Source: Bilabrum cf. latius (Eukaryota). From it: a stretch of 64,000 bases of DNA. Made by a program: the position numbers and the translations under genes. The notes under the pieces are model-generated. The model worked only from the letters and a program-made list of their open reading frames with translations, searched no databases and was not told the origin of the DNA. The DNA lies in NCBI GenBank assembly GCA_965178125.1, contig OZ237755.1, positions 868,001-932,000 on the forward strand. Direction: 5' to 3'. Position 1 is the stretch's first letter, and each line of letters starts with the position of its first letter. Below, in pieces: positions 4,748-35,096 of this stretch.

Positions 4748-5049
4748 GTATTGCGACTTGCGTTTCGCAATACACTGCCTCGTGGACACTCACGCTTGAT
4801 AGATCCCATTCGACTCGTGCACTGAGCTCAGCTCGAGACCAAAGGAAACGTACAACGCCCAACCAAGCGCAAGCCCAGCCACGATCTCTAGCACAGACAC
4901 TCGCCAACCCAAGCGGCCTGAAATCATTGGTTATCACAGGAACAGGAAATATTTTAGTGTCGATAATGTTTAGATTAGCTATGCCTAGCGATCATCAGAT
5001 TCTCGGGATATCGGTGATTTCAACACCTAACAATGCTGCAAATCCGGAT

Positions 5050-6770
5050 AGGGGAGGGGGGCTCGGAGTTCAGGGTCATCGCAATCCAGCCTCAGTGGCA
5101 TACATTTGTGAGCCGAGCGCTTCGGCCCGAATTGCTGCCGAAGGTGTAGCGAGCTTGCGCCCCACACCAGATGGGGGCGGGGCTCAAGTGCGGGATGGAC
5201 GGAGCCATTGCAACGATCCAGGTTCTTCTCAGCGCTAACCCTGAGTGGGTGGTCGCTGCGCTGGATGCCTCGGATGCATATGGCTCCATCCATCGGAGGG
5301 CGACCTTGCAAGCTTTGGCGTCGCTGTCTACCGGACTGGGCACTTATGTGCACTAGTGTCTGCAGCACGCAGTACATGGTGTTGTGTCTGGCGAGGATGG
5401 AACAGAGCTTGTGCAGAATCTGGAGGGGGTGCTGTAGGGGTCGCCATTGTCTCCAGCGCTGTTCTGCGCAGCCATTTAGGGCGCTCTGAAAGCGACAAAG
5501 ATTGCCCACATGGATGTGTACCTTGTAGCGTACCTTGACGACGTGTACCTGTTGGGGGAGCTAGACAATGTCAGGGCAGCCATCGCCACGTTGGAGGGGA
5601 AGTTGGGGGACGTCGGCCTCTCCCTCAACTAGAAGAAAATGTCGTTCTTCTCCCCCTCCCGAGCCACCTATTAGCGCCTGGTCCACCTATTGGCACCAGA
5701 CCAGGAGGATAGGCTCGAAGGAGTGGTCCACGAGCATGGGCTGAGGATCCTGGGCGTCCCGGTAGGGACCGAAGTCGGAGTGGCCGAACAAGTCTTGAAG
5801 GGACGCTTGGAAGAGACGGTGGTTCAGACTTTTCGCCTGGCCTACCTGGACCCAATCAGTGCGCGCGCACTGTTTGCCCGGTGCGTTGTGCCGGCGTGGA
5901 CGCACGTGCACAGGAGCGGGTGCCTCTTGCCCGAGCTCAAGGACGGGGTGACACCCCATTTGAAGGAGGTGTAGGGAGCGTTTCTGGAGTTCCTGACAGG
6001 GATGCGTGTAAGCGCTCTCTCGCAGGCCCAGAGACAGGTGTTGGACGTGCTGGGTCCGCTATCCGTTGCCCGTGGGGGTTTCGGAGTGGGGCTCGTGCCT
6101 GCCGATTTAACCCGGGAGGCAATGTGCGTCGGGGGGTTGTTGGATGTGTGGCCCTGGTTGGCGAGGATAGCACGCGACTTCAACCTGCCACACCTGCAGG
6201 GGGCGCTCAACCAGTGGGATCCGGCGGAGGAGGTCGGGGAAGGTGCGGCGGCAGGTGCCGGGGAGGCACCCCCTCTGCTGAACCCACCGCGAGGGCGCAC
6301 CGCGCGCCTGAACTCCCTTGTGGACACTGTGATGACCGCAATCTCGAAGTGCGGGGGACTCGTACAAGAGGGGAAGCAAGACAATTTCGGGATGGCTGGT
6401 TTCCCGAGTCCGTTGCTTTTCACTTGTTCCGGAGGCTGACGTCCCCCCACGCTATGGTATGGTTTGGGACACAGCCCGCACGTTGGAACTCCTGGGCAGC
6501 CCAGCCGAGAAGGCAGCCCGTATGGAGCTGTGCGGTGGGGCCACGAAACCCTGGCGCCGGGAGGTGAAGGACCTTCGGGCATGGGTGACGAGGCAGCTGG
6601 CTGGGGAGCAGCCGGCACCCACCGCATCGCAGGCGGTTATTCGTTTTCTCGAAGGTGCCGCAGGAGGGCACAACCAGAGCCATGTGACACGGGGTCGGCA
6701 CGTGGTTCAGACCAGTGGTGCGCTGCTTGGTCGTCATGGTGGCCGCGGCGTGCGCCGCGATCACCGCTGA
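5050..6770 (+). mobile_element. 5'-truncated, decaying non-LTR retrotransposon fragment (CRE/SLACS-like reverse transcriptase)
   Basis: One frame from ~5050 to TGA at 6439 reads FRVIAI..., APHQMGAG, LDASDAYGSIHR, GVL(TAG=Q)GSPLSPALF, YLDDVYL, GLSLN(Q)KK and GLRILGVPVG. Sequence is frameshifted after ~6400; no endonuclease recognised. Confidence 0.8.
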
Positions 6771-12809: not shown

Positions 12810-15800
12810 CTAGACATGGCCTTAGGCCCCTTCCCCCGTCTGCCTTATAGGGGGGAAGGGGCCGGGAGCAGGGCGCGCCTCGTTCCGAAGCGAGGGAAGC
12901 CCAGCGCGGGCGTGACTCGCAGGGTGGTCGCGCAGCTGGTCGCAAGCTGGTCCTGTGGGTGGCCTGGGGGGAGCCGGATGAATGGCCTTGCCGGCTGCTG
13001 CCCTACGATATTCCGTGCAGACATTGTTGCAACAAACATACTATGCAATCCATAGCCATGGCGTATGAACGTGTGCGCGCAGGGTTGCCGGGGTCGCTCA
13101 CCGTCACGGGTTGTCACTGCCACTGCACCGTCGTACCCAGTGTTGTACACACGAAAAAGCTGCGAGCCAGCAAGTTTAGTTTAACTCGATCTCTACACGA
13201 CTTGTTGGTATTGGTGTATAAGTCACAGCTCTTGTGAGCATCGCCACGTATCCCAGTCGTGTCCAGGAAATCGCCACGTCACGGTGGCGTTGCCGAGCGG
13301 CGAAGATGAATTCCTGAAACACACACTCGCCTCGCAGCGATGCATGCACCTCGAGCAACCGACTGCCACACACAGAGTTGGAACGCAGCAGTCACGCATC
13401 GTGGAGCCAATATCTGTCCCAACGCAATGGCGCCGGTGCGGGCGCCGTCTGATCTCTCTGTGAGCAGCGAGGTCCAGATTTCGGATGGTCGGGCCGCTCA
13501 GGAAGATGAGTGGAAATCGGTTTCGGGCTCGGCCGTCGGGGCAAATTTCCAATGCATTGCCAGCGTCGGAGCTCATCGGAGTACGGCGCCTAGGTTACTT
13601 CAGGTCTCAATCTAGCGATCCGGCGGGGCGGCGGGGCGGGTTGGCGTGGTCGAGCAGAGCGAATCGCGAAAACGACGGAAAGTTTTGCAGCATTGCTCGC
13701 CCAGCGGATGCCGTTGCTAGTGGGTGCGTTGCAATGTTTGTCGAAATACGCAGAGATTTGCAAGATGAATTTTCGAGTTAGGTCCTCGTTCGCGAGCGAG
13801 GTCCCCGGACGTCCGATTTCGGCTTGCTGCCGACGGAATTCTCGAGGTTTTTCGCCCCGGCATGCGCTTTCCCAGCGGTGGGCGTGAAGCCGACTGGCAC
13901 GAAAAGTTGCGGATGTGTGATAGCAAATGTTTGGTGGGGGTCCGATGCCGGGTCCGGCGCGCGTGCGCGGCGCTAAATCCTTGTGCCAAGGTAGGGTGGG
14001 AGCGAGCCTATATATAATATCCTTAACTAGACATGACCTTAGGCCCCTTCCCCCGTCTGTCTTATAGGGGGGAAGGGGCCGGGAGCAGGGCGCGCCTTGT
14101 CCCGAAGCGAGGGAAGCCCAGCGCGGGCGTGACTCGCAGGGTGGTCGCGCAGCTGGTCGCAAGCTGGTCCTGTGGGAGGCCTGGGGGGAGCCGGATGAAT
14201 GGCCTTGCCGGCTGCTGCCCTACGATATTTCGTGCAGGCATTGTTGCAATAACTGACAAATATATTATGCAATCTACAGCCATTGAATTTGAACGTGTGC
14301 GCGCAGGGTTGTCGGGGTCGCTCACCGTCACGGGTTGTCACTGCCACGGCACCGTCGTACCCAGTGTTGTACACTCGACCACAGTAAAGCTGCGAGCTGA
14401 AGGTATGCAGCAAGTTAAGTTGAACACGATCTTTGCAAGACTTGTTGGTATTGCGGTGTAAGTCACAGCTCTTGTGAGCATCGCCACGTATCCCAGTCGT
14501 GTCCAGAAAATCGCCACGTCACGGTGGCGTTGCCGAGCGGCGAAGATGAATTCCTGAAACACACACTCGCCTTGCAGCGATGCATGCACCTCGAGCAACC
14601 GACTGCCACGCACAGTGTTGGAACGCAGCAGTCACGCATCGTGGAGCCAATATCTGTCCCAACGCAATGGAGCTGGTGCGGGCGCCGTCTGGTCTCCCTG
14701 TGAGCAGCGAGGTCCAGATTTCGGATGGTCGGGCCGCTCAGGAAGATGAGTGAAAATCGGTTTCGGGGTCCGATTTCAGGCCAGATTACCGGTGCATTGC
14801 CAGCGTCGGAGCGCGTCGGAGTGCGACGCCGAGGAAACTTAAGGATTCAATCTGGCGATCCGCCGGGGCGGCGGAGCTGCGCAAAATGGTCGGTTTGCGC
14901 AGGTTGCCAAAACGACGAAAAAGTTATCTGGGCCTCACGTCCGTCGGCGGGCGTAGCCGCTGGGTGCGTAGCATATTACATCTGAATGCGCTCGGAAGCG
15001 CAAGAGCACATTTTTGAGTTAGGTCCTCGTTCGCGAGAAAAGTGCCGGAACGTGGGTTTTGGGCCTTGTGCCGACGGCCGCCGAGCAGGAAATCCGCCCC
15101 GGCATGCGCTTTCCCAGTAGTGAGCGTGAAGCCGACTGGCACCAAAAGTTGCGCATGCGTGATAACAAATGCTTGGTTGGGGTCCGATGCCGGGTCCGGC
15201 GCGCGCGCGGGGCGCTAGGTCCAATTGCCAAGGCAGTGCGGTAGCGAGCCTATATATAATATCCTTAACTAGACATGGCCTTAGGCCCCTTCCCCCGTCT
15301 GCCTTACGGGGGGGAAGGGGCCGGGAGCAGGGCGCACCTGGTCCCGAAGCGAGGAAAGCCCAGCGCGGGCGTGACTCGCAGGGTGGTCGCGCAGCTGGTC
15401 GCAAGCTGGTCCTGTGGGTGGCCTGGGGGGAGCCGGATGAATGGCCTTGCCGGCTGCTGCCCTACGATATTTCGTGCAGAGATTGTTGCATTAAACATAC
15501 TATGCAATCCATAGCCATGGCGTATGAACGTGTGCGCGCAGGGTTGCCGGGGTCGCTCACCGTCACAGGTTGTCACTGCCACTGCACCGTCGTACCCAGT
15601 GTTGTACACTCGACCACTAAAGCTGCGAGCTGAAGGTGTGCAGCAAGATTAGTTTAACTTGATATTTACACAACTTGTGGTATTGTGGTGTAAGTCACAG
15701 TTCTTGTGAGCATCGCCACGTATCCCAGTCGTGTGCAGGAAGTCGCCACGTCACGGTGGCGTTGCCGAGCGGCGAAGATGAATCCCTGAAACACACACTC

Positions 15801-16490
15801 GCCTCGCAGCGATGCATGCACCTCGAGCAACCGACTGCCACACGCAGTGTTGGAACGCAGCAGTCGTGCATCGTGGAGCCAGTATCTATCCCAATACAAT
15901 GGCGCTGATGTGGGCGCCGTCTGGCCGCCCTTCGAGCAGCGAGGTCCAGATTTCGGATGGTCGGGCCGCTCAGGAAGATGAGTGGAAATCGGTTTCGGGC
16001 TCGGCCGTCGGGGCAAATTTCCGGTGCATTGCCAGCGTCGGAGCTCATCGGAGTACGGCGCCTAGGTTACTTCAGGTCTCAATCTAGCGATCCGGCGGGG
16101 CGGCGGGGCGGGTTGGCGTGGTCGAGCAGAGCGATTCGCGAAGACGACGGAAATGTTTGACGCACTGCCCGCCCAGCGCCTGCCGTTGCCGCTAGGTGTG
16201 TTGCAATGTTTGAGTGTGTGCGCACCTTTCTACCAGAGGAATTTTCGAGTTAGGTCCTCGTTCGCGAGCAAGGTCCCCGGACGTCCGATTTCGGCTTGCT
16301 GCCGACGGAATTCTCGAGGTTTTTCGCCCCGGCATGCGATTTCCCAGCGGTGAGCGTGAAGCCGACTGGCATATAAAGTTGCGGATGCGTGATATCAAAT
16401 GATTGGTTGGGGTCCGATGCCGGGTCCGGCGGGCGTGCGGGGCGCTAGGTCCAATTGCCAAAGTAGGGTGGGAGCGTGTCTATATATAAT
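12810..16490 (-). repeat. Three tandem ~1.2-kb non-autonomous Helitron units (12810-14026, 14027-15268, 15269-16490)
   Basis: Recurrent junction atatccttaa|ctagacatg. Unit lengths 1217, 1242 and 1222 bp; the third lacks its first 8 nt where it joins the helicase. Confidence 0.93.
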
Positions 16491-19400
16491 GGGTCGGCAG
16501 AAAACGTGCTTGGGTTGAGACGGTGCGGGGTTGTCCATCTCTAGGGTCGCGTAGCCTTTGTGTCCTTCCTTAGTGCATACTGAACCTAAAAGACGTGCTG
16601 CCATACCGGTAGCGAGGCCGATCTCTGGATAGTCGTTCGCAATTACCACCACGGGGCACCCCGGAGCCAGTGGAAGGGACAGGGGTCTTGGCCTCACGCC
16701 GAAACCGCGCTTCCGATGCATCGCCAGAATCCCGTTGAGCATTTGAGAGTCCTCGGCCGTGTTCATGTCCAAGGCACGTATCAAGTCGCCGGCTCCCGAG
16801 ACCAGGGAGCAGACGGCACGATGCTCTCGGTAGCCTGATGCTAGGACGGTAGGATTGAGGCCATCCCTTGCGTGCCGCATGCAACGTTCGTTGATCTCTC
16901 GCAGTTGTGCATTCGTAGACACGAGCGAGAGGCTGTTTCGAACGCCGGCCATGGCCTCAGGCGTCGATCGATGGCATTGATGAAACCTGCAGCAGCGCTG
17001 CAGTACTTGCCCTACCTCTGTCGCAGTGCATGAACCTTGGCGAACGGAGTTCAGCAGCGAAGCAAAATCGGGATCTTCTCTTGCCCTCATGTTCCGGTGC
17101 AGCGGGAGCTGCATCATGGATCTCCAGTGGGGACCATCGTAAAATTGATCCACTGTGGGGGACAGGCGTGCCACAAATGTTTCACGAGCGTCCTTGTCGG
17201 CCTGGACCTGGTCCGGTGTGAAGTTGAACTCTGCATCTAAGGCTTCGAATTGGGCATCGGGAAGTGTGTTGAGCTCGAAGCGCAAGGCAGCGGCGTCCAC
17301 GATAGGATCGGTGCGAGCCGCAAATCCACGCTTGGTGATCCCTGGCAGCTGCTGGCTATCTCCGATGAAGAGACAGGACCTGTACCCGAACGGTTCGATC
17401 GAAGCAAGCGCTTCCTCTTGCGATCTGCCCTCTTGCACGGTGAGAAACTCGTAGGTGTCTGTTGCCTGACGCAGTGCACGGTCCACCAGATTAAGAAGGT
17501 GCTTATTCATGAACAGGCTCTCGTCGATGATGAGCAAGTCAATGGCGGATAGCGTCCGCCTTCGCGCTCGATCCTTCTTAGGGTCGAGCGAAGCTGGGAT
17601 CTGTAGCGAGAAGCAACGATGAATGGTGACTCCGCCTGGGCCCAGCTGGATGGCTGCCTAGGCTGTAGTGCCAAGAAGTTGCGTCGCTAGGCCAGATGCT
17701 GTGGCGATTCCGTGGATGATAGATGTCGTGAAGCTTTTGCCTGACCCAGCCGGGCCGGTCAGCAGAGCAACGACACCTGTCTGACCGCGAGATTGATTCT
17801 CTGCCCATGGCAAGAACCGCTGGTGGCCCACGAACCGACGTAACGCAGTTTTTTGATCGACGCTCAACTGCGCGTATCTTGTTGGCATGCCGGACACCTC
17901 CTGGGAGACAGCACTGACTGCGATGCGCATGGCTTTCCGAAACAGTTTCCGCATGTCCGCGTCTATTCGAAGCCTCGGATTGAGAAGAATCTCTCTTGCT
18001 CGACTTGCATTGCTCCGAATGAACTCCAGCATCTACGTCGACATGCAAACGACGTCAGAGGACAGCAGAGTCTGCTGCAGAGCCGACACTACGGAGTGAT
18101 CGTGCACGGCAGACGATGCAATGCAGAGAGCGTCGAGGCCGTCCTGTAGTTCCGCCACCTTGGAGAGCCTGTCGCGCGCCTGCACGGCTTGGCGCTCAGT
18201 ATCGTCCAGCTCTAGCTCCTCCTACTCCAAAGGCGGAGCGAAGCCAAGTACATGGGCCTATGCGAGAATGTCCGCCGTGTCCTGCTCAGCAGAGCCTGTC
18301 GCATTGAAATCCACGAGCTTATCTCGAGCGGTGGCGCGCAAACGAATCAGATCTAGCTCGCTCCGAACCTGGTCGGTAGAGTCCCCGCTGGTACCCTCGG
18401 CACCAACCAGCGCTATCTCGGCCAAAGTCTCGTCAAGCTGCGGCTCGCGGTCATCCACTGCCAGCGGAAGTGGCGTGGCGCCAAGATGCATGTTCTCGAT
18501 GGCGGCAGCATGCATTTGCTGGAGCTGGCTCACGTCAACCTGGGCGGCCAGCAGGACATCAGCGTGGTCATTGCAAAGCTTCATGTCTTCGCGCATCGAA
18601 GCTGCCAACTGCAAGAATCGCTCCGTCGCTGGGTCCTGATGGAGAATGGCCGTCGGGACACCGCGAGATGATGCGGCGGCTAGAGCTCCGTTGTATACGT
18701 AGATCATGTCAGCCACTCCGTGTTCGAAATCACGAAGCTGGCGGATATCTCTGCCCGGTCCGCTCAAGGGCGCATTGAGGTGCGGGAACGGTAGGGATCC
18801 GGGCCTAGGAGGCAGGAGCACTTGCCGGTGCATGGGCTCCTGTAGCAATCCAGCAAACTGGCCGTGTCCGATATACAACACCGAGAGCAGGGGCACTTGA
18901 CGCGATTCTGCCTCTCTTGACCAACCTTGAGCATCAGTGCGTATCGTCTTTACGTTGCCTGTGGCCGTGTCCGGCACCACACCCATAGAGAACTCTATCG
19001 TGCACAGTCGCGGGCAGTTGTCCGTGCCTTCGATTGTCTCGGCAGCCACGACATCCGGTGCATCCTCAGTCTGATCGAAGTCCTGCCTAGGATCGGCTTG
19101 CTTGGCCTCCCCACTTGGGATGTACACCGCAATGGCGGCGCCAAGTGCCCTTGCGTGGCCAACGATGGCCGGAAAGCCTTCATAGCCGCCGTGCTTGCGC
19201 AAGAAGGAGAGCAAAGCACCAGCAAAATGTGGCCGCTGAATCACTTCATCAACATCAACAGACCGAGCTGGCGGAAGTAGCTCGTGCGGAATCGACCCAT
19301 TGGCGATGCGTTTGCTCCAATGCGCGTAGAGGTGCGATTTCACGGTCATTGCGTCTACGCCCCCGCTCCGAGCATGCGGTATCCTCAAAGCAAGATCATG

Positions 19401-22400
19401 CGACGGCTGCGTATTTGAGCTACCTACGGGCGCGGCAATGGCAGAGAAGGCACGGGCAGCAGCCAAGCCTGGCATGTTGCTAGCAGCTTGGCCCTGAGTA
19501 TCCTCGACACCTTCATCGAGATCATCCAGGTCGTCATCCATGAGAATGACCTGGGCTGGGCTCGCTCGAGGTGCACCGGCGCCAGTGGATGGGCTACGCG
19601 TGAGCCTGGCGGGAGCTTCACCCTACGTGAAAGCAAGGGCAGCATCCTGAGGTTGGTGCATCTGAACGGCAAGTGCCGCCGACAGGCTGCAGTGACGCGG
19701 GGCGTCAAGCGATCTGCAGCAGGTAGCCAACACCGCTGGCTAGGTAGCTCTCTGCAACGCCTCATGCACACCAAACGTAAGGGTGGCTTGGACCGGTAAA
19801 TCCGTACAAAGAATACCGTCTGGCACCGGACAGATTGGTGGCAAAAACGGCTGAGGTGGTCCCTCCGCAGGCTTGGTGCCAGCTGAGTCTGCGGTGCAAT
19901 CGCTGATGTACTGGATGTGCTGGACCACAGCGCGAAGCACGGCAAACTTTTGCTCGTACGATGCGTCCTCACAGCCCCTGGTCCTGTCCAAGGACACGAG
20001 GACATGCTTGAGCACAGTCACCAAGGCACCGAGCTGCTTCTAGGACTTCTGGCCAGCCGCTGCCTCCGAGAAGAGCACTAACCCGGCCGCGTCGGCGATG
20101 CCTCTAAGCATGCATTCGGCATGCCACGGAGTCTTCGATTTCATCGCTTCTGGACTCAGAAGCGAGTGCTCGTCGAGAAACGGAACGTGACGCACGAGCA
20201 GTCCTCGAAAGTGCTGTTCGACAGGATCCGTCCCTGTGTGCGTTTTTACAATCACCAAGCGAGGACGAGCAAGCATCCTGTACGCTCTGCCGGCTCTGTC
20301 AAAATATAGCGTATTGACGCCCTGTGATATCGAGCAGTTCCTGGGCTGCACATCCGCCGCCTTCGTGAGTCCCTTTCGCCGCATCGCTTTCTCGTACGCC
20401 TTCACGACGGAGGACTACTTGGCCTGGTACACTGGTACAAAGTACTTGAAAAACTCGGGAGCGGTGAGATTCGACGTAGTCAGAGGCTGGTCAGGGTCTC
20501 CGTGCACGGTGCATCCCACCCAACCGCCCGATGCTTGCTTGTATGTTTCGTCTCCGAATGCACTTGGGTCTGTACCACGAATGACCAGCAGAGGAGCACC
20601 CGATTTCGTGGCGGCAGGAATGCGCTCGATGCGATCAGGAGACACCAGCCGCCGTGGTTCAGCGAACGCATTCCGTACGATGGCTTCATGTTTGCGCAGA
20701 TGACTGCTCCCTGCCTCAGCATCGGATTCGTCAGACTCCAGGCTCTCACCCTCTGATTCAACCTCGCCTGTGGCAGCACCACCACGACCGGTAGTCGCGG
20801 CGAAGTGATCGGTTGCAGCACGTGCTCTCCTCCTCGATGGGTGATGAGTTCGTGGCGACAGCAGCAACGCATCGCCGTCAGCATCGCGGCAATCATCCTG
20901 CATGTTGGATGCTGCTCCCATGGGTGCAGTGGCATCGATGATCGCATCATCCTCCTCATCATCATCATCATCCTCATCGAGAGCGCGATGTGCCGCCCAT
21001 GCCGCTCCAGGACTCGGTCTATGAGCACCTGAGGCTGGCCTTGCCGCAGCATTTGCCGCTGCTGCGGCCCATCGCTACGGGGCACCTCTCGCCTGCTATT
21101 GACCATCATCCAGCCCAAAGCAGCGTCCAAAAGCCTGCATATCCGGTCCATGCAGCCTCTAGAACGTCTCACTTTCCAATGACATGGGCTGGTTCGAAGA
21201 AGCAAATCCGGGTACAATGCCGGTGCCATCCTGCTCAGTTTTGTCGAGGGTCAGGTTGGTGTATCCGGCAATCAGCGGAGCGGACTGCGTCCGAGAAGCT
21301 GCCTGCATGTCACTCCTCAGCCGAGCGGGACCACGCAACGTGCTGGTTTTCGTGATGTCTGAGGCGTCAGGCCTTCGCACGAGCCAAGGCACTGGAATCG
21401 ACAGGAAGCGCTCTTCGTATCGCTGCATGTTAGTTGTCCTGAGCACGTCCGGGTCAGCTACCGCATGTGCGCGCTTGGCGGATTGTACCGCGGCGTCTCG
21501 AGCAGCTCTGGATGTGTCCTCGGCGGTCCCTAGCGTATCGTCCATGGCTGCAGCGCCCGTGGCCGCGCGCAGATCGCGTCGGTTCAGAGTCATGTGTCTC
21601 GCTAGCGATCGAGCATGCTACAGCTTGCGCGTGGAGGCTCGTGCAGCACCGCTAACACCATTGTCATGGTCGTCGTCGGGAGGTCTGCCATGCCTTCGTG
21701 CCAGAGCCTCTCTCTCCAGTTGCGTCGCCGACTTGGCCATGAAGGTCCTCTGCTCTGCGGGCCTGAGGTCAAGCACAATATGGCTGCTGGTGGCGTTAAA
21801 GGTCGGGTATCCGAGCAGCTCTGTCACCAAGCATTGCATTCCCCTGGGCGTGCTCTTCGCGTCCCGTATGTGAGCAGGGAGCGCAAGCTGTTCTTCCTCG
21901 GTGAGGATCGCAGTGGTGTCCGTCTTCGTGATGTACCGGTTGATGTACAGCGCCACCCTTGCAGAGTCACACCCTTGCACGTTCACGTGAGCCCGCAGCA
22001 TCTGAATCATGTGGCAGCTCGATGGAACCAGGGAGCACTCGTCCTCGGAACGGGGCCATGTGCCCATCCTCGTCCTCGCAAGGCACTCCTCATCGCCCCC
22101 AGGATCAAATGGGATACCATAGCGGCAGCTCGCAGCCGCTCGCTTCCCGCTGCCCGAGCATCGGATCCTGCACCGGTCGCTGCACACATGCGTGCAAGTC
22201 TTGCGGAAGCGCTCGTACGCCTCATCGAGCAGCTCGTCGCCAGTCGAAGCGAGAGAAGTTGAATACTTGCCGCGAGCATCAGCGGTTGTACTCCTTGCCG
22301 GCAACGTGGAGTTGATGACGTGCTGTGGCATCGTGGTCGATTCATCCACAAAGTAGAGGCTGTGATCGTGGGCATGTCCCCTCACCTGGAACTCGGTCCT

Positions 22401-25400
22401 CGTCAGTGCGTCGTGGACTGCTCCATACGGGCCGCAGCAAGGATCGGTAATAATCTGATGAGTAATGTGTTTTACGCTGTAGTACCCCACGATCTGCTCG
22501 ACGGGAAGATCTCGGCTGTCGTACTGGCCTTGCACCAACCACGACTGCGACCCATACTCTCTGATGAGCTTCTGGGAGGCCCAATCGTCGCTCTGTGTCA
22601 CCGTGCAGAAGTACCTGGGGCGATCAAACTCGTTCACGAAAGCGTCGCCTGTGTTCATCGTCTTCCTGGCTTGCGCCTGGGAACCGGGCAGGGACACGTT
22701 CAGGTCTGGTTCCTTCCTGAGCGCGGCGGCTCGGTGCCTTATCACCTGCTCCGCAGTCGGACGACGTTGCATGTGCTGTGCGGAGAAACCCAGTCCGTAC
22801 GCCCCAGACTGCAGCTGAGTCTGCTGCGCCAAACACACTACCCGGAGGAACGTGTCGTACACCCCAGCAATGAACGAATTGCTTGCTCGATGGGATCGGC
22901 TCGGCTGCAACAGCAGCGTCTTCAGTCACGCCTTGAACCCATTGATGATCTGGGGCTTCCCAGCAACAAATTGGTACATGAGACGGCCGACTTGCTCTGG
23001 CGTGGCTGTCTCTGCTGCTGCGGTCGATTTGGACGACACCGGCCCCTTTGCCTTAGACGACATGCTTGGCGTGAATTCCAGCGGAACATCGCTGCAAACC
23101 TCATGCATCCCGGCTGCTATAAACGATGGCAGGTTCTGCAGGAAAATGAGCTTGGTGTCGCGGATATCCATGTGCGTGCCGGGGTCCACTTCCAAGTACG
23201 ACGGGATCGTGATGTGCACGTCCGTGATGGCTTCAGACGGCAAGCCTGCCGGCACGTGATGAGGGGCCGCTGCGGCCCTATGGCTGCCTTGCGACAGATT
23301 GCCCCCAGCAGCGTTAGCCCGTAGACGCAGTCTCGCCTGCTCCTTGGCATAGCGCATGGCTGCCTCGCCATTGACAGCCACTGTGTTCGGCATCATGTCA
23401 GGAGGAATCGCGGCTGCCTGCGTAAAGTGCGTGGCGTGCACGCCCTGGTGCTGCAGCTCAGGGATGGAACCAAGTCTCATTGCAGGCATCGCAGCAGGCA
23501 GCTGTTCGTCAAATTGTCTGTGTTGCGCGTGCGGCCTAGACTCTAATATTGCATGTCCAGGATCCTGCATGTCAGCTCCAGCCCCTGATGCTGCAGGCCT
23601 CGCTGGTACTCCTGGCCACTGTCCGATAGCATACATGCGACGTGGCTATGGTCCCTCGCCGTCACTTTCTTGCCCATCTGTCATGGTCCAAGCATTCGTG
23701 GCACGTGCCGAGGCTGCCGCACTCGAAGAGGACTGCACTTGCAACACAGGATCCACTGGTGCGCCATGCATTGCTGTCAGTGGCGAATGGTCTGCCCGCT
23801 GACTTCCACCAGATTGAATCGCGCCCAAGGTAGCTGATGATAAGCCAAGTCCGGAACGCCGTCTAACATGCAAGGCCTCGGTGGTACGTGAGCGGTGCTG
23901 CCTAGCGTCCTGCGCCAGGATACCATCACCATCACCCTCGCTGTCGCTGTCGCTGTCACTATCATTGCCACTGGCTGCACCTCTAGCTTGAAACGCAACA
24001 GCTGAGGATGCCCCAACACGTTCATGTAGAGCAGGTTTGCCGTCCATATCGCCGTCACTCCCACCGCTCTAGCCTGTACCAAGGGATTGAGCATTTGCTG
24101 CAGCTCCTTTTGTCTGGAGAAGCTATCCACGAACTCCCTCATCATCGAAGCAACTGTCATCACTGTCCATAGCATCGGCCATTGGCTAGGCAACAGCACC
24201 ACGGCTATCCATATCGGCAACCACAGCTGCGACGCGTGACTCGAGATCGGACAGGTGATGCCCAGGCGAGTGATAGTCTGGGTCACCCTCCATCAGTTTC
24301 AACTTGATGTCATGGCAGGCCTGCTACACCACAGTTTTCAAAGCTCCTCGCTAAACCCTACGTTCCCATTCAATGAGTACCGTGGTAAGAACCGCTCGGA
24401 ATGGGAGCGTGCGGTACCCTAGCAAGTACACCAGCGCGAGGATGACTTTGGCCACACGGAGACCGCGGCTCTGCTTGGTGCACAACGCAGAGGTGAGCAG
24501 CGATACGATCTTTCCACCCTAAGCATCGCCCTCGCGCTGGTAGGATTCCAGGCGCTTCAAGATGTCCCTCGAGATACGATGATCGCCATTTGCGCCAAGC
24601 ACCACCCTGTCATTCATCCGAGACTTGTCCACGTTACTGCCACACAGATGAGGAGTCGCATCCGTGGCGAAAGATCGGCTGGCAGAGCCCCTGAGCTTGG
24701 TGTCTGCATTCTTCATGAACCGGCCCGGGGCCATGGTAAGCAGGCACCTCACTTTGCAGCTGGCTAGGCACAGCAGGTCCGTCTCATCCTGGTTTAATCC
24801 GCGGAGCGGCAGCGGGACTGGAGCCTTGTAGCTGATGGCGCGGCCAGAGGGTGCAACAACCTCAGCCATGGCCTTGCTGCACTTTGCCTTCAAGCTGGCC
24901 ACGTCGTCGCAGTTGGCTAGCGTCTCGGCATCTGCGGGCACAGTTCTGCTGAACACATCCATGGCTTCCTTACATTGAACGCTGCTGCAGTATCCCACAA
25001 AGTACTTGCGTGAGTGGAGACGTGTGCCAGCTGGTGGTGGGGACCGGTCAGCTGCACCCGTGTACAGCCCCCTGGTGCGCGATCGAGCTCTGGCGGCACT
25101 GCCTCTACGGCGTCGCTTGCGAGCAGGGGCGGCATCGCTGCCCTGCGCTGCTTCTTCCTGAGCATCTGACCGCCGACACCCAGCGATCCACGTCTTCCAT
25201 CCTGGCTTCGCGTCGCGCACGAACACATCGTTCTGCCGCTTGCCTTCGCCACGCGCCATGATCGGAGCCGAATCCAGCATGAGATGCCTGGGCATGGAGC
25301 CGTCCGTATCCTTGTTGTGCTCGTGCATGGTTTCCCTGAACGTCTCGCCATAGAAGTGGTACGCCCCAAACCACTCCACATCGAGCTGCTCTCGAACTTC

Positions 25401-26557
25401 ACCCTCACGGTAATCAGCGGCTGGCAAAGGCTGGAAGCAGAACTCAGGGACCTCCTTGCTGAGAGCGGTGATCACAGATACCAGCCGCCCGCACGCCACA
25501 CAGTGCCCCAGGTGCTGTGAAGCCATGCTGACTGCTTGCCATCCTCTGGCCATGGGGCTATGCAACTTGCCTGCATCCGAGCGGACGGGCACGTGCACGT
25601 ACCCCTTCGATTCATTGGCAACCACTTCCTTCACTTGCATCGCGGGAAGAGCCATGAACTTGGCTGTGAGATCCAGCAGCATCTCCACCCAACCTGATTT
25701 CAGCCTCGTCAACGTCAGCCCTTCAATGCCGTCCCTGGCTATTGCGTTCGGAAGCAAGTGCCCGCAGCTCCGCAGCCTGTCCAACCAGCCCTTGTTGCGA
25801 TGATACCGATCATCATACGGCCGCCTATGCTTTGGAAGCCCCTCACCGAGTTCCTGGAAGGGGTACACAAACTTGGCCATGAGCTATAGCGCTCTGCTGT
25901 CCCACGACTCAGTATCGAAGAAGATCCCATCAAGTACCTCGGCAATGGTGCTTTCGCTTGCTTTGCTGATTCTGACGCCGCCTAACTAACCTAAACCATA
26001 CTATCTACTCAGAGCAGTTTTTACCAATGTATCTATCCTAGATCCTTTGATCTGCTTTGTCTCTGGGTTGAATGCACCCTACGACAAACATGCCTACAGA
26101 TGCTCCGCCTCAAAGCAGCTGCAGTCTTCGTGTCCCATTGTGCCTTCCGGGTGCTCATCCAATTTATCTGTGATAACATAATGGCCATGGATACATTCGA
26201 GGACATAATCACTTTAGGGTCTCATCGATACGTGTGCATCATCCAACACCTGGATGCTACTCTTGAACAGTTCATGTTCTTACCTATATCATATTCAGCA
26301 CTCTCATACGAAGCTTTCGCATCCTGGAGAGCCCCTGGTAACTCCACAGCCATATCAAATGGATCGACCTGCAGCTTCTGTTCGAGTTCACAGCTGAGCA
26401 CTTGAGCATTGCTGGCATCCTACGGATAGTTATGCCCGTCTTGCTATCCGCTTTGATCCTGGTAGCCGCTTGCATGTTGGCGCTCTCGCAGACCTGCAAC
26501 GTGTCTCTGTTGTCGAACTCTTTTATCTGTTCGAGCTCGCTTACGTCCTCGTGGCAT
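16491..26557 (-). CDS. Helitron RepHel transposase (HUH Rep + Pif1 helicase), ~3300 codons, 3'-truncated, one in-frame TGA at 22926, probable intron 26168-26283
   Basis: Eleven ORF-track pieces from 16395 to 25880 share one frame and are joined by TAG (one TGA). Rep motifs YFCTVTQSDDW, EFQVRGHAHDH, YINRYITK. Pif1 motifs GPAGSGKS, GVTIHRCF, LLIIDE, GDSQQLP, LHRNMRAREDPDFASLLNSVRQG, LAPGCPVVVIAN. Putative exon 1 MPRGRKRAR... with a GTAAG..CAG intron. Confidence 0.88.
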
Positions 26558-26781
26558 ATTCCGTATTTGATTTAGCTGCAGCGCCAGTGATCTGCTGCCA
26601 CTCTGAGCTACTTGGCACGGACAAAAATGAATAATATACTTGACTTTAATTAAAAATATGATGTTTCAAGTTGTGCTCCACGGCTTACTCATATCTCTCA
26701 CCTTTACAGGTGTACCACTTATCCTGGTTCGGCACGCACTGTTCAACAATACAACACTTCAGCTCCAGACAATTCACTTAT

Positions 26782-29700
26782 AGCAAGCTTAGCTTAACTC
26801 GATCTTTACACTAATTGTTGGTATTGTGGTGTAGGTCACGGTTCTTGTGAGCATCAGGACGTATCCCAGTCGTGTCGAGAAAATCGCCACGTCACGGTGG
26901 CGTTGTCAATCAGCCTGCTGACCGAAGATGAATTCCTGAAACACACACTCGCCTCGCAGCGATGCATGCACCTCGAGCAACCGACTGCCACACACAGAGT
27001 TGCAGCGCAGCAGTCGTGCATCGTGGAGCCAATATCTGTCCCAATGCAATGGCGCTGGTGCGGGCGCCGTCTGGTCTCCATGCGAGCAGCGAGTTCCAGA
27101 TTTCGGATGGTCGGGCCGCTCAAGAAGATGAGTGAAAATCGGTTTCGGGGCCCAATTTCAGGCCAGATTACCGGTGCATTGCCGGCGTCGGAGCGCGTCG
27201 GAGTGCGACGCCGAGGAAACTTAAGGATTCAATCTGGCGATCCGCCGGGGCGGCCGGGCTGCGCGCCGTGGTCGGTTGGCGCAGGTTGCCAAAACGACGA
27301 AAAAGTTATCTGGGCCTCACGCCCGTCGGCGGGCGCAGCCGCTGGGTGCATATCGAATTACATCTGAATGCGCTCGGAAGCGCAAGAGCACATTTTTGAG
27401 TTAGGTCCTCGTTCGCGAGAAAAGTGCCGGAACGTGGGTTTTGGGCCTTGTGCCGACGGCCGCCGAGCACCAAATCCGCCCCGGCATGCGCTTTCCCAGC
27501 GGTGAGCGTGAAGCCGACTGGCATATAAAGTTGCGCATGCGTGATCACAAATGCTTGGTTGGGGTCCGATGCCGGGTCCGGCGCGCGCGCGGGGCGCTAG
27601 GTCCAATTGCCAAGGCAGGGTGGGAGCGAGCCTATATATAATATCCTTAACTAGACATGGCCTTAGGCCCCTTCCCCCGTCTGTCTTATAGGGGGGAAGG
27701 GGCCGGGAGCAGGCCGCGTCTCGTCCCGAAGCGAGGGAAGCCCAGGCCGGGCGTGACTCGCAGGGTGGTCGCGCAGCTGGTCGCAAGCTGGTCCGGTGGG
27801 AGGCCTGGGGGGAGCCGGATGTACGGCCTTGCCGGCTGCTGCCCTACGATATTCCGTGCAGACATTGTTGCATTAAACATAGTATGCAATTTATAGCCAT
27901 GGCGTATGAACGTGTGCGCGCAGGGTTGCCGGGGTCGCTCACCGTCACGGGATGTCACTGCCACGGCATCGTCGTACCCAGTGTTGTACACACGAACGCA
28001 CCAAAGCTGCGAGCCAGCAAGTTAAGTTGAACACGATGTCTACACGACTTGTTGGTATTGTGATGTAAGTCACAGCTCTTCTGAGCATCGCCACGTATCC
28101 CAGTCGTGTACAGGAAGTCGCCACGTCACGGTGGCGTTGCCGAGCGGCGAAGATGAATTCCTGAAACACACTCTCGCCTTGCAGCGATGCATGCACCTCG
28201 AGCAACCGACTGCCACACACAGAGTTGGAACGCAGCAGTCGTGCATCGTGGAGCCAATATCTGTCCCAATGCAATGGCGCTGGTGCGGGCGCCGTCTGAT
28301 CTCCCTGCGAGCAGCGAGGTCCACATTTCGGATGGTCGGGCCGCTCAGGAAGATGAGTGGAAATCGGTTTCGGGCTCGGCCGTCGGAGCAAATTTCCGGT
28401 GCGTTGCCAGCGTCGGAGCTCATCGGAGTACGGCGCCTAAGTAACTTCAGGTCTCAATCTAGCGATCCGGCGGGGCGGCGGGGCGGGTTGGCGAGGCATG
28501 TTGCAGCTTTTGGCGAAAATGACGATCCTGTTTGCCGACTTACGTGCCCGGCGCATGGAGTTGCCGCTGGGTGCGTTGCAATGTTTGTGTGTGTGCGCAC
28601 CTTTCTACCTGATGAATTTTCGAGTTAGGTCCTCGTTCGCGAGCAAGGTCCCCGGACGTCCGATTTCGGCTTGCTGCCGACGGAATTCTCGAGGTTTTTC
28701 GCCCCGGCATGCGCTTTCCCAGCGGTGGGCGTGAAGCCGACTGGCATATAAAGTTGCGGATGCGTGATCACAAATGCTTGGTTGGGGTCCGATGCCGGGT
28801 CCGGCGCGCGTGCGCGGCGCTAAATCCTTGTGCCAAGGTAGGGTGGGAGCGTGTCTATATATAATATCCTTAACTAGACATGGCCTTAGGCCCCTTCCCC
28901 CGTCTGTCTTATAGGGGGGAAGGGGCCGGGAGCAGGCCGCGTCTCGTCCCGAAGCGAGGGAAGCCCAGTGCGGGCGTGACTCGCAGGGTGGTCGCGCAGC
29001 TGGTCGCAAGCTAGTCCTGTGTGGGAGGCCTGGGGGGAGCCGGATGAATGGCCTTGCCGGCTGCTGCCCTACGATATTCCGTGCAGACATTGTTGCATTA
29101 AACATAATATGCAATCTACAACCCTGGCGTTTGAACGTGTGCGCGCAGGGTTGCCGGGGTCGCTCACCGTCACGGGTTGTCACTGCCACGGCACCGTCGT
29201 ACCCGTACCCAGTGTTGTACACACGAACGCACCAAAGCTGCGAGCCAGCAAGTTTAGGTTAACTTGATCTCTACACGACTTGTTGGTATTGTGGTGTAAG
29301 TCACAGCTCTTGTGAGCATCGCCACGTATGCCAGTCGTGTCCAGGAAATCGCCACGTCACGGTGGCGTTGCCGAGCGGCGAAGATGAATCCCTGAAACAC
29401 ACTCTCGCCTTGCAGCGATGCATGCACCTCGAGCAACCGACTGCCACGCACAGAGTTGGAGCGCAGCAGTCGTGCATCTTGGAGCCAATATCTGTCCCAA
29501 TGCAATGGCACCGGTGCGGGCGCCGTCTGATCTACCTGCGAGCAGCGAGGTCCAGATTTCGGATGGTCGGGCCGCTCAGGAAGATGAGTGAAAATCGGTT
29601 TCGGGCTCGGCCGTCGGGGCAAATTTCCAATGCATTGCCAGCGTCGGAGCTCATCGGAGCGCGGCGCGTAAGTTACTTCAGGTCTCAATCTAGCGATCCG

Positions 29701-32620
29701 GCGGGGCGGCGGGGCGGGTTGGCGAGGCATGTTGCAGCTTTTGGCGAAAATGACGATCCTGTTTGCCGGGTTACGGGCCGGGCGCTTCGAGTTGCCGCTG
29801 GGTGCGTTGCAATGTTTGAGTGTGTGCGCACCTTTCTACCTGATGAATTTTCGAGTTAGGTCCTCGTTCGCGAGCAAGGTCCCCGGACGTCCGATTTCGG
29901 CTTGCTGCCGACGGAATTCTCGAGGTTTTTCGCCCCGGCATGCGCTTTCCCAGCGGAGGGCGTGAAGCCGACTGGCACATAAAGTTGCGGATGCTTGATA
30001 ACAAATGCTTGGTTGGGGTCCGATGCCGGGTCCGGCGCGCGCGCGGGGCGCTAGGTCCAATTGTCAAGGCACTGCGGTAGCGAGCCTATATATAATATCC
30101 TTAACTAGACATGGCCTTAGGCCCCTTCCCCCGTCTGTCTTACGGGGGGGAAGGGGCCGGGAGCAGGGCGCGCCTTGTCCCGAAGCGAGGGAAGCCCAGC
30201 GCGGGCGTGACTCGCAGGGTGGTCGCACAGCTGGTCGCAAGCTGGTCCGGTGGAAGGCCTGGGGGGAGCCGGATGAATGGCCTTGCCGGCTGCTGCCCTA
30301 CGATATTTCGTGCAGGCATTGTTGCAACAAACATAGTATGCAATCTATAGCCATGGCGTTTGAACGTGTGCGCGCAGGGTTGCCGGGGTCGCTCACTTCC
30401 ACAGGTTGTCACTGCCACGGCATCGTCGTAGTACCCAGTGTTGTACACACGAACGCACCAAAGCTGCGAGCCAGCAAGTTCAGTTTAACTTGATCTTTGC
30501 ACGACTTGTTGGTATTGTGGTGTAAGTCACAGCTCTTCTGAGCATCGCCACGTATCCCAGTCGTGTACAGAAAATCGCCACGTCACGGTGGCGTTGCCGA
30601 GCGGCGAAGATGAATTCCTGAAACACACACTCGCCTTGCAGCGATGCATGCACCTCGAGCAACCGACTGCCACACACAGAGTTGGAACGCAGCAGTCGTG
30701 CATCGTGGAGCCAATATCTGTCCCAATGCAATGGCGCTGGTGCGGACGCCGTCTGATCTCCCTGCGAGCAGCGAGGTCCAGATTTCGGATGGTCGGGCCG
30801 CTCAAGAAGATGAGTGAAAATCGGTTTCGGGGCCCGAATTCAGGCCAGATTACCGGTGCATTGCCAGCGTCGGAGCGCGTCGGAGTGCGACGCCGAGGAA
30901 ACTTAAGGACTCAATCTGGCGATCCGCCGGGGCGGCGGGGCTGCGCGCCGTGGTCGGTTGGCGCAGGTTGCCAAAACGACGAAAAAGTTATCTGGGCCTC
31001 ACGCCCGTCGGCGGGCGCAGCCGCTGGGTGCATATCGAATTACATCTGAATGCGCTCGGAAGCGCAAGAGCACATTTTTGAGTTAGGTCCTCGTTCGCGA
31101 GAAAAGTGCCGGAACGTGGGTTTTGGGTGCCGACGGCCGCCGAGCAGGAAATCCGCCCCGGCATGCGCTTTCCCAGTGGTGAACGTGAAGCCGACTGGCA
31201 TATAAAGTTGCGGATGCGTGATAACAAATGCTTGGTTGGGGTCCGATGCCGGGTCCGGCGCGCGCGCGGGGCGCTAGGTCCAATTGCCAAGGCACTGCGG
31301 TAGCGAGCCTATATATAATATCCTTAACTAGACATGGCCTTAGGCCCCTTCCCCCGTCTGTCTTATAGGGGGGAAGGGGCCGGGAGCAGGGCGCGCCTCG
31401 TCCTGGAGCGAGGGAAGCCCAGCGCGGGCGTGACTCGCAGGGTGGTCGCGCAGCTGGTCGCAAGCTGGTCCTGTGGGAGGCCTGGGGGGAGCCGGATGAA
31501 TGGCCTTGCCGGCTGCTGCCCTACGATATTTCGTGCAGGCATTGTTGCAACAACTGACAAATATAATATGCAATCTACAGCCATGGCATTTCAACGTGTG
31601 CGCGCAGGGTTGTCGGGGTCGCTCACCGTCACGGGTTGTCACTGCCACGGCACCGTCGTACCCAGTGTTGTACACTCGACCACAGTAAAGCTGCGAGCTG
31701 AAGGTATGCAGCAAGTTAAGTTGAACACGATCTTTGCAGGACTTGTTGGTATTGGTGTGTAATTCACAGCTCTTGTGAGCATCGCCACGTATCCCAGTCG
31801 TGTGCAGGAAGTCGCCACGTCACGGTGGCGTTGCCGAGCGGCGAAGATGAATTCCTGAAACACACACTCACCTTGCAGCGATGCATGCACCTCGAGCAAC
31901 CGACTGCCACACACAGAGTTGGAACGCAGCAGTCGTGCATCGTGGAGCCAATATCTGTCCCAACGCAATGGAGCTGGTGCGGGCGCCGTCTGGTCTCCCT
32001 GTGAGCAGCGAGGTCCAGATTTCGGATGGTCGGGCCGCTCAGGAAGATGAGTGAAAATCGGTTTCGGGGTCCGATTTCAGGCCAGATTACCGGTGCATTG
32101 CCAGCGTCGGAGCGCGTCGGAGTGCGACGCCGAGGAAACTTAAGGATTCAATCTGGCGATCCGCCGGGGCGGCGGAGCTGCGCGCCGTGGTCGGTTGGCG
32201 CAGGTTGCCAAAACGACGAAAAAGTTATCTGGGCCTCACGCCCGTCGGCGGGCGTAGCCGCTGGGTGCGTAGCATATTACATCTGAATGCGCTCGGAAGC
32301 GCAAGAGCACATTTTTGAGTTAGGTCCTCGTTCGCGAGAAAAGTGCCGGAACGTGGGTTTTGGGCCTTGTGCCGACGGCCGCCGAGCAGGAAATCCGCCC
32401 CGGCATGCGCTTTCCCAGTGGTGAGCGTGAAGCCGACTGGCACCAAAAGTTGCGCATGCGTGATAACAAATGCTTGGTTGGGGTCCGATGCCGGGTCCGG
32501 CGCGCGCGCGGGGCGCTAGGTCCAATTGCCAAGGCAGTGCGGTAGCGAGCCTATATATAATATCCTTAAGGTCTAATTGCCAAGGCAGTGCGGTAGCGAG
32601 CCTATATATAATATCCTTAA
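26782..32620 (-). repeat. 5' end of the autonomous copy (26782-27650), four full ~1.2-kb units (27651-28873, 28874-30104, 30105-31327, 31328-32569) and a 51-bp terminal duplication
   Basis: Same unit and junction sequence as at 12810-16490; unit lengths 1223, 1231, 1223 and 1242 bp. Confidence 0.93.
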
Positions 32621-32714: not shown

Positions 32715-35096
32715 GCGAGACCAGCGCTCTCACTTAGGGGAATTCAGAAGAAGATAAAGGAAATAATTCAAAAAATCCTGGCTCAGCAGAAGACTCCGAC
32801 CCTACAGCGTGGTGAGCCGAGCCTGCGGACACTGGATGGGCGGTGCATTGTGACGGACATCATGGAACACGCGGACGAATTGTTGGACTAGGTTGCATCT
32901 GCAGGCCCCTCGAGACGATGGCACGAGGTGCAGATGGAAGCAGCCGGCTATTCTGTGGACAATGACGGTGATGCGGGAGCGGGGATGACTGGGGATGCGC
33001 CGTCAGCATTGGGTGCGGACGGGATGTGGTAGGCTTGGGCACGATGCCTGGCAAAGCGGGACAAGATTGACTTGCGGTCATTCCCACCGGGCTAGGCACC
33101 ATCATCTGCTTTGGACGTCTGGTATGGAACGTTGTCACACTGGGAGCGTAGGGGCGAACTGCAGCAGGGGGAGCGATGGGCAGCACGCTAGCCGTGTACG
33201 CTGTCACCTCGTGGAGCATGGCAGGCACATTTGGCTCGTTGTCGACGCTGCGGGGCGCGGGGCGCAGTGGAGCCCGATTGTGTAGCGGGCCGGGGGTTTG
33301 TTGGACTGGCACGACATGGGCTTCGGGCGGAGGCAGTCTTGAAGGTGTTGGGGGCGCAGCCGGTACGGGCTGACCCGAAGGACTTGCCGGCGGACGAGGA
33401 GGATGTAGTCCCGTTCGTGGAAGCAGCAGCGAGTGCAGGCAAGATTCGACCGGTGGAGGGCGCCGCGGTCTAGGTGACGCCTATGTTCGTTGCCAAGAGG
33501 ACCGCAATCGAGGTACAGCAGCGGGAGGGTCAGACACCACGCTTGGTGCAGCGGGAGGACACGACTGGCAAGCAGCGCCTAGTCACGGATATGAAGCGCT
33601 CGGGCGCGAACGAGGCATTTCTTGACTTGCGTTTTCGGTATGGTGATTTTGCTCGGCATTTAGCAGAGCGAGTGGGACGTGACAGGCACGAATGGGGGGC
33701 AGCCTTCGATTTCAAGGCGGCATATCATAGTATAGCGCTGGCACCGGGGCTGCAGCGATGGATGGCAGTTCGCGGAGTGGGTGGCAGCATGTTTTAGTTT
33801 GTGGTCTTGTCGTTTGGTTGCAGAATGGGCTGTTTTGTCGCATCAGTAGTGTTGGCAGAGTGTCTAGCGGGGGTGCGACTGCGCACCGCACATTGGGCTT
33901 TTGGGTACATTGATGATGGCTTTCTGTCAGCACGTACGGAGTCCCGCACTATGTAGTTGTTGTGGTGTGCCGTGCTTGTAGCGCGGGGGATTGGCATGAG
34001 GATATAGCCTAGCAAACTTACCTTTCCAACATAGGTGATTGAGTTCCTTGGGCTAAAGATTACCCTGGGAGCCCACTTGAAGGTGACACTGCGCTCGGAT
34101 CGATGGCCACGGATCCACGCAGTGCTGAGGACCGTTGAGCGAATGCGAGCTTTCAACATGCTAGCAACGAGTGCGCTGGCGGTCAAGGCTGTGGAGAAAC
34201 TGGCAGGACAGTTGGGCGCGGCTGCGGCAGTAATCCCCCACGCTTCGCAGCACGTGTTTGCGATATACTAGGCGGCTGCAAAGGCTCGCAAAGGTGGTAG
34301 GCACATCTGGACGGCAGAGTTCAACGAGGAATTTGAGTGGTGGCTGACATGTAGGGACCGCGGTATCTTGACAGCGGCAGCAGCTGCACCGATATACCCG
34401 TTGCCGGAGGGGAGAGCATCCGTGTTTTGTGCTGACGCGTCAGCCCATGGACTGGGTGCAATGTGGCGCCGAGGCAATGGTGATTCTGGCTTGATGAAAA
34501 TGGGTTTCCACGAGGACATGCAGTTACTATCCAGTACGGCACGCGAACTAGCATCACTACGAGCTTTTTTGTCAGGACCAGGCTAGTTGGCGAGGAGCCA
34601 GACTTGCCCAGAGGCGCTCTTCGTGCTGTCAGACAATCAAGCCCTGCCAAATTTGCTGCGGAAGGGCGGCTCGATGAAGGCTGGGTAGCGAGATGAGCTG
34701 CGAGAGATTGGAAGGCTGGCTGAGAACTTGGGATACGTTATCTTCCCCGTGTGGTAGAGGCGAAGTACACCGATCATGGTGGCATGCGATAGATTGAGCA
34801 GGGTGGAGGACGGTGCTGGTCAACTGGTGTAGACGGCGGGGCAGCGCGTGGGCAAAACGGGGTTTGTCTCGGCGGCAAGGGCGACATCTGACTCAACTTT
34901 TCATGCACCATTTCATCTTCGCAGGACCATTTGGGGAGCTGATCCCAGTGACTGGACGAGCAGGCTCAAGTGCTGCGGCACAACGGCGAGCAGCGGTGGC
35001 GGCGACTAGGACCCTGATGCTGTAGGAGAGTCAGCAGCTCGGCAAGGGAGCTCTGGACGCGCGCAGGCGGAATCTGACCATGCAGGCGGAACTTGA
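32715..35096 (+). CDS. Reverse transcriptase + RNase H of DIRS/Ngaro-type element (first ATG 32862)
   Basis: Single frame with ~15 TAG, ending in TGA. RT motifs KQRLVTDM, FDFKAAYHSI, F(Q)FVVLSFG, GYIDDGF, PT(Q)VIEFLG. RNase H motifs CADASAHGLG, SSTARELASL, LSDNQA, CDRLSR. Confidence 0.88.

Follow-up and report, generated by a model that had tools for sequence, protein, structure and literature searches.

What builds a tandem array out of small transposons with a protein-coding relative in its midst is the question raised by positions 12810-32620 of a 64-kb stretch of DNA from Bilabrum cf. latius (contig OZ237755.1; the whole 64,000-nucleotide stretch is referred to as the window). This region is a short composite tandem array of Helitrons that comprises seven non-autonomous 1.2-kb elements, belonging to at least two lineages, and one dead autonomous copy coding for RepHel, the Helitron protein with a rolling-circle nuclease (Rep) and a helicase. 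From the arrangement described below, we infer both an order of events and Rep-mediated joining at element ends, i.e. a multi-step assembly in which recombination also had a share, and assign a probability of roughly one half to this reading.

All coordinates refer to the forward strand of the window, and all array elements lie on the minus strand. The array (12810-32620) consists of seven units of 1217-1242 bp and one 11,160-bp coding copy in a single orientation. In the 5' to 3' direction of the minus strand, it opens with an additional copy of the initial 51 nt of the 5' terminus (32570-32620, 5' motif at 32602-32620) directly upstream of U7 (31328-32569, 1242 bp), followed by U6 (30105-31327, 1223 bp), U5 (28874-30104, 1231 bp), U4 (27651-28873, 1223 bp), the RepHel-encoding element (16491-27650), U3 (15269-16490, 1222 bp), U2 (14027-15268, 1242 bp), and U1 (12810-14026, 1217 bp), the last unit, whose CTAG is followed by the flank TTGAATC. 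A blastn search of the window with one unit as query returned seven full units and one partial match (26782-27650, 869 bp, 91.9% identical to U2); all lay inside 12810-32620, with no unit match elsewhere in the window. Tandem Repeats Finder (TRF), whose longest period of 500 makes a 1.2-kb period invisible to it, reported only the 51-bp terminal duplication (period 51, 2.0 copies, 98%). The units differ from one another by 2-15%, private indels included, and are thus distinct copies rather than one unit repeated by the assembler.

Six of the seven internal junctions read exactly CTAG|TTAAGG without any spacer, which confirms the initial annotation where it described units with defined ends abutting head to tail; its name "satellite" is an overstatement for seven units seen at one locus. 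It had further described the autonomous parent as embedded in register. This is true of the 5' end of the coding copy, which directly adjoins the CTAG of U4, but not of its 3' end, where the truncated helicase is fused to a U3 that lacks the first 8 nt of its 5' terminus (TTAAGGAT). The junction between the coding copy and U3 (16490/16491) is accordingly the one that does not run from terminus to terminus. The 51-bp duplication of the 5' terminus at the start of the array is a further departure from the regular pattern.

The ends of the units were compared with the features of canonical Helitrons listed in a passage of PMC13085455 (RepHel protein, CTRR 3' end, 3' hairpin, 5'-TC, no terminal inverted repeats, and insertion within 5'-AT-3' without target-site duplication). 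The 5' end of the unit, read on the minus strand, is TTAAGGATATTATATATAG. This 19-nt terminus occurred without mismatch at eight sites (six units, the RepHel copy, and the 51-bp terminus fragment), compared with 0 matches in 100 shuffles. The 3' end has the same architecture in all seven units: a perfect 13-bp stem with a 13-nt loop, 11 nt, and the terminal CTAG, which agrees with the CTRR terminus of Helitron1 (HLE1) and with the subterminal 3' hairpin of canonical elements. In U2, the hairpin occupies 14042-14080, and it lies at the same offset in the six others; the stem is identical in 7/7 units, with variation confined to loop positions. Folding z-scores were only -1.4 to -3.8, owing to the high G+C content of the sequence. 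An inverted-repeat scan of one unit revealed no terminal inverted repeats between the termini.

The 5' end departs from the canonical TC, since all eight intact termini begin with TT(AAGG). The outer flanks (...GTGCCA upstream and TTGAATC... downstream) fit an insertion between A and T and, owing to the shared TT, also between T and T. Since TT stands at the start of the outer 3' flank as well as of all 5' termini, the boundary of the element can be placed only to within 2 bases, and none of the possible placements gives TC. Features of Helitron2 or Helentron elements were sought as well. The scan for asymmetric terminal inverted repeats yielded no repeat pairing the 5' terminus with the 3' region, the 5' 81 nt folded no better than shuffled sequences and so gave no sign of a 5' hairpin, and an apurinic-apyrimidinic endonuclease domain had no Pfam match in the 3271 codons present of a protein whose C-terminus is deleted. 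The array elements are Helitrons, and their ends are Helitron1-like.

The coding copy can be read only with the genetic code of its host in mind. With the standard code, the RepHel frame contains 20 in-frame stops between 25886 and 17660 and no frameshift; 19 of the 20 are TAG, and the entire frame (16491-26213, minus strand) holds 24 in-frame TAG codons. A host gene in the same window, encoding an ASCC3-like helicase (40646-49327, minus strand), carries 13. When this gene product was aligned with 11 homologues, TAG fell on glutamine in 11/11 (in the helicase Q motif), 9/11, 9/11, and 6/11 of them at four sites; a fifth alignable site was variable, with glutamine in 1/11, and at the other TAG codons of the aligned stretch the homologues were gapped or unalignable. 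Eleven long open reading frames (ORFs) together contained 90 in-frame TAG and 0 in-frame TAA, where about 29 TAA would be expected from their CAA/CAG usage (127/394) if TAA also specified glutamine; ten of them end in TGA and one in TAA. The 90 TAG against 0 TAA and the position of TAG at conserved glutamines point to TAG, and not TAA, as the reassigned codon. The genome thus reads TAG, and apparently TAG alone, as glutamine, similar to NCBI table 15. According to a passage of PMC5304391, reassignment of UAG only is rare outside ciliates. The transposon is written in the same variant code as its host, and with TAG read as glutamine the RepHel frame is nearly intact. The 20 in-frame stops would suggest that the RepHel copy is a strongly decayed pseudogene, a view that was dropped given that 19 of them are TAG and that host TAG codons stand at conserved glutamines.

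The ASCC3-like double-helicase gene is seemingly one uninterrupted exon of 2893 codons, with its best named match in Cafeteria (67%). Its C-terminal ~150 residues did not align with the homologues and may represent an unrecognised intron or a divergent tail. The window as a whole is intron-poor, with a G+C content of about 59%.

With TAG as glutamine, the RepHel frame comprises 1095 + 2176 codons, with the final 31 codons lying in U3. The only interruption is a TGA at 22926-22928, which terminates the N-terminal part of the frame (22926-26213, 1095 codons with 12 in-frame TAG); as two homologues carry tryptophan at the aligned position, this TGA is taken as a nonsense mutation. Both halves of a RepHel protein, an HUH rolling-circle nuclease and a Pif1-like helicase, were found in the 11.2-kb element, with Pfam scores of 38 bits for Helitron_like_N (cut-off 28.9) and 47.5 bits for PIF1 (cut-off 25.9). 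The Rep core, with the HxH motif H186/H188 and tyrosines Y327/Y331, extends over 21930-22720 (coordinates hand-derived from residue numbers), and the N-terminal core of the helicase, with the Walker A motif GPAGSGKS and a DE box, over 17322-17783. An alignment of the window protein with 15 relatives taken from an exhaustive protein search showed that the invariant E-Q-R-H-H block, which includes H186 and H188, and both tyrosines are kept in the window Rep. The best solved relative was the bat Helitron transposase Helraiser (7lcc, E 1.4e-5), with similarity in the helicase core only. In full-length relatives, the 2B domain is followed by a C-terminal block of helicase motifs (Herpes_Helicase/Viral_helicase1; TVHKxQG...GQxYVAxxR); neither Pfam nor the alignment detected any of this block in the window copy. 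Its helicase ends at 16491, and the frame then continues into ATTATATATAG..., i.e. U3 minus the first 8 nt. The end of the helicase, the 3' untranslated region, and the 3' terminus are missing from the RepHel copy. The coding copy is therefore dead twice over, by the nonsense TGA and by the loss of the helicase C-terminus.

The protein is very large, with at least 3240 residues present; the 1095-residue N-terminal region and the stretch of about 1350 residues between Rep and helicase gave no Pfam match. The exhaustive protein search with Rep yielded 54 relatives, including a 91% identical fragment, P0121, while an earlier search with the Rep ORF, limited to longer proteins, had produced no matches. 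P0121 comprises 488 amino acids, is about 87-91% identical to the product of 21105-22535, and carries glutamine at two of three positions where the window has TAG. Its similarity indicates that a close paralogue or a closely related genome is represented in public data.

The relationship between units and coding copy is less direct than the initial annotation had it. As initially annotated, the RepHel copy opens with the first ~870 bp of the unit: its 5' 869 bp (26782-27650) are 93-95% identical to U2, U6, and U7, and 81% identical to U1, U3, U4, and U5. Beyond ~870 bp, the two part company: the coding copy runs on as unique sequence, and each unit has another ~375 bp, closed by the hairpin and CTAG. 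This 3' part of the unit had no match elsewhere in the window. The proposal that the units are internal-deletion derivatives of the autonomous element is supported for its 5' half by the shared 869 bp, while the end of the RepHel copy that would correspond to the other half is deleted. A 325-bp segment in four of the seven units is only 64-69% identical to that of the presumed parent, so these four are not simple deletion derivatives of the RepHel copy in the window. In bacterial and archaeal genome contigs, a long shot for a eukaryotic element, the 3' terminus of the unit had 0 matches, and of 91 pattern matches to Rep relatives 0 were confirmed. A protein search for translated unit copies, using a 217-residue ORF that spans a unit junction, gave 947 candidates, none of them significant. 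A coding function of the units themselves was rejected: variable sites were spread evenly over codon positions (p 0.3-0.97), and the 437-residue ORF of a unit had no Pfam match.

The divergent 325-bp segment, referred to as the cassette (alignment columns 176-500), divides the elements. Pairwise identities placed U2, U6, U7, and the coding copy in group A and U1, U3, U4, and U5 in group B, which splits further into U4/U5 (B1) and U1/U3 (B2); by this measure the units represent two or three lineages. Cassettes are 94-98% identical within A and 83-95% within B, and only 64-69% identical (31-36% different) between A and B. Outside the cassette, all pairs are 87-99% identical, those between types 87-97%. 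Divergence is therefore highly uneven along the unit, with χ2 values of 158-166 for A-B pairs (8 degrees of freedom, p about 1e-30; for U7 versus U4, χ2 158, 8 degrees of freedom, p 4e-30). Conservation is highest in the last 62 nt, where A and B differ by 2.7%, and in the first 19 nt, of which there are eight exact copies. Capture of a gene fragment as the origin of the B cassette was considered and rejected, as the cassettes of A and B share homology (~70%, E 1e-28 to 1e-39) and have no other match in the window; their still recognisable homology marks the difference as deep divergence and not as foreign DNA.

Along the array, the types are interleaved in the 5' to 3' order A, A, B, B, parent (A), B, A, B. 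U2 and U7, which resemble each other most (97.7% identical), are non-adjacent and lie at a distance of 17 kb. The units immediately downstream of them, U1 and U6, have an identity of just 87% over the first 175 nt, which means that the similarity of U2 and U7 stops at the Helitron terminus. Several units are mosaics: U4, U5, U6, and U1 show different combinations of cassette type, sequence variants within the first 60 nt, and two indels of the 3' part. U6, for instance, has a type A cassette together with the two 3'-part indels of B-type units. Recombination within the array has acted, as the mosaic units, the deletion junction at 16490/16491, and perhaps the order A-B2-A-B2 show.

How could such an array be assembled? 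In the reading that we favour, Rep would cut exactly at the 5' boundary of an element and at the junction of a 3' end with a 5' end, the same junction that is found on Helitron circles. The boundary of a resident element could thereby become a preferred site for joining another copy, since Helraiser makes and precisely cuts the 3'-5' junction and since a host A followed by the T of the element would restore an A|T site, where Rep could readily nick and join. Read-through of 3' ends may in addition have copied two neighbours together. Later exchange between units would have produced the mosaics, a later deletion would have taken away the 3' portion of the autonomous copy and 8 nt of the unit that follows, and a later duplication would have added the 51 bp of the outermost 5' terminus. 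The initial annotation had regarded perfect head-to-tail junctions as a signature of rolling-circle intermediates, and such precise 3'-to-5' end junctions are indeed what Helitron circles carry according to a passage of PMC5876387. The mixture of parent and diverged derivatives had suggested to it a self-targeted insertion at element ends. The lineages of the units contradict a single concatemer that decayed in place and favour assembly in multiple steps; self-targeted insertion is a plausible part of it, and recombination explains part of the pattern equally well. End joining and recombination probably both acted.

Several observations weigh against Rep-mediated assembly. The recombination or gene conversion seen in the mosaics could make the pattern without Rep. 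Divergence outside the cassette is roughly the same for all pairs of units (3-10%), the expected outcome of a single old amplification, and the order parent (A)-U3 (B2)-U2 (A)-U1 (B2) resembles a duplicated dimer. At the internal junctions the sequence is G|T, which is noncanonical relative to A|T unless the boundary is moved by one base to T|T, and the 5' end is TT in place of the canonical TC. The analysis moreover covered a single locus of the family.

One alternative is ordinary satellite dynamics, in which one or two Helitron copies that came to be adjacent, or an internal deletion of a full-length copy in place, were followed by unequal crossing-over and gene conversion with no further participation of the transposase. 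It has the mosaic units on its side, in which 5' variants, cassette type, and 3' indels are uncoupled, as well as the roughly equal divergence of 3-10% outside the cassette. The last four elements, in the order A-B2-A-B2, also suit it, as parent and U2 (92.9% identical) are about as divergent as U3 and U1 (92.2%), and the non-terminal junction at 16490/16491 demonstrates that a rearrangement without Rep acted at this locus. The edges of blocks exchanged by unequal crossing-over, however, fall anywhere, whereas the block shared by the non-adjacent U2 and U7 ends at a Helitron terminus, and none of the six intact junctions is off by even one base. Cassettes that are 31-36% different between near-identical termini are, furthermore, difficult to obtain by neutral change in place. 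On balance, we regard an origin by these processes alone as possible, if rather doubtful.

A bolder version of Rep-mediated assembly assigns the whole mixed array to the transposase: Rep would use resident boundaries and end junctions as its preferred sites, and autonomous and non-autonomous elements of different lineages would dock there one after another, which would amount to the transposase-driven birth of a satellite. This proposal is tentative, and in its full form we consider it unlikely.

A single rolling-circle concatemer, i.e. one round of replication without 3' termination followed by decay, would directly yield exact head-to-tail junctions and a uniform orientation, and passages of PMC11934779 and PMC12001565, which cite Xiong et al. 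2016, offer such concatemers as the explanation for plant arrays. One template would nevertheless give identical units, and the array instead interleaves two to three lineages with cassettes diverged by 31-36%. The highly uneven divergence along the unit is also at odds with decay of a common template, and an 11-kb and a 1.2-kb element cannot share one circle. Such an origin is improbable here. That the array or its length was made by the assembler is hardly credible, because an artefact would repeat identical copies in place of units with private indels, and both outer flanks consist of unique sequence.

The locus is a new example of a known arrangement, as tandem arrays and head-to-tail junctions of Helitrons have been described before. 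Passages of PMC5876387, PMC12001565, and PMC11934779 report them from plant and bat genomes, and PMC5148889, in the part dealing with such arrays, adds Drosophila, rice, maize, and Metarhizium. The arrays of plant centromeres (Xiong, Dooner & Du 2016) and of the bat Myotis lucifugus (Pritham & Feschotte 2007), as summarised in passages of PMC12001565, PMC11934779, PMC5148889, and PMC5876387, likewise consist of whole or truncated Helitrons arranged head to tail in one orientation and are taken there as a by-product of rolling-circle replication. The window array has the corresponding properties, namely complete elements in one orientation whose 3' ends are joined directly to 5' ends, exactly so at six of seven junctions. 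Compared with what these passages describe, it differs in mixing diverged lineages with a coding copy and in its host, a GC-rich protist with TAG as glutamine. To find diverged lineages and a coding copy side by side in a single array may be less usual.

Fungal Helitrons offer a second parallel. In Fusarium and Metarhizium, the first 31-85 nt of the 5' end are duplicated, and for a tandem of three copies the explanation given was either rolling-circle replication or the insertion of one copy at another's 5' end (both in passages of PMC5148889); both routes of array building are thus already in print. Shared with the window elements are the duplicated 5' terminus (51 nt in the window), tandem copies, and the joined ends of circle junctions. 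As described in the same source, the fungal elements are of the Helitron2 type with asymmetric terminal inverted repeats, in contrast to the window elements, which lack such repeats and have Helitron1-like ends. Satellite-carrying Helentrons and DINE-type elements of oysters and Drosophila also link rolling-circle transposons to tandem repeats; in the passages of PMC7492417 and PMC4067079 that deal with them, short tandem units lie inside the element, whereas in the window the repeated unit is the entire element with both termini.

Of the systems compared, Helraiser is the one whose transposase is the best solved helicase relative of the window protein, although this protein likeness is remote. 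Helraiser ends are 5'-TC...CTAG-3'; the window elements differ by their 5' TT, and their junctions are chromosomal and not located on circles. Each exact internal junction of the array nonetheless has the 3'-end-to-5'-end form of Helraiser circles, which, as a passage of PMC5876387 states, carry a precise end junction that is cut exactly by the transposase.

In the vicinity of the array, two ORFs with reverse-transcriptase domains (Pfam RVT_1, TAG read as glutamine) were found at 32715-35096 and 5018-6436, both on the plus strand; the former is oriented opposite to the array and starts 95 bp away from the array's 5' edge. A retroelement may enclose or adjoin the array, and this part of the window, between host genes, may be rich in transposons. 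No repeat common to both array flanks was detected. Further downstream on the forward strand, a (GCTGGT)x47 microsatellite (63262-63545, plus strand) lies in frame within an ORF (61615-63792) and would specify about 95 alternating alanine and glycine residues; the ORF had no Pfam match. The window contained no tRNA and no Rfam families.

The rolling-circle mechanism leaves few traces in genomes; head-to-tail Helitron arrays are among them and have been proposed as a source of satellites and centromeric repeats. The locus described here is compact and well resolved: exact junctions, units of diverged lineages, a duplicated 5' terminus, and a coding copy whose 5' end is in register are all contained within 20 kb. 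Taken alone, it adds an instance and not a principle; together with the whole genome, it could serve to separate concatemer formation, end-targeted insertion, and recombination from one another. If elements do dock at the ends of resident copies, this would be a route to tandem arrays distinct from concatemer formation and from unequal crossing-over, in a lineage that reads UAG as glutamine. The reassignment of TAG to glutamine changes the reading of every gene and transposon in this genome, and it is perhaps of wider interest than the array itself.

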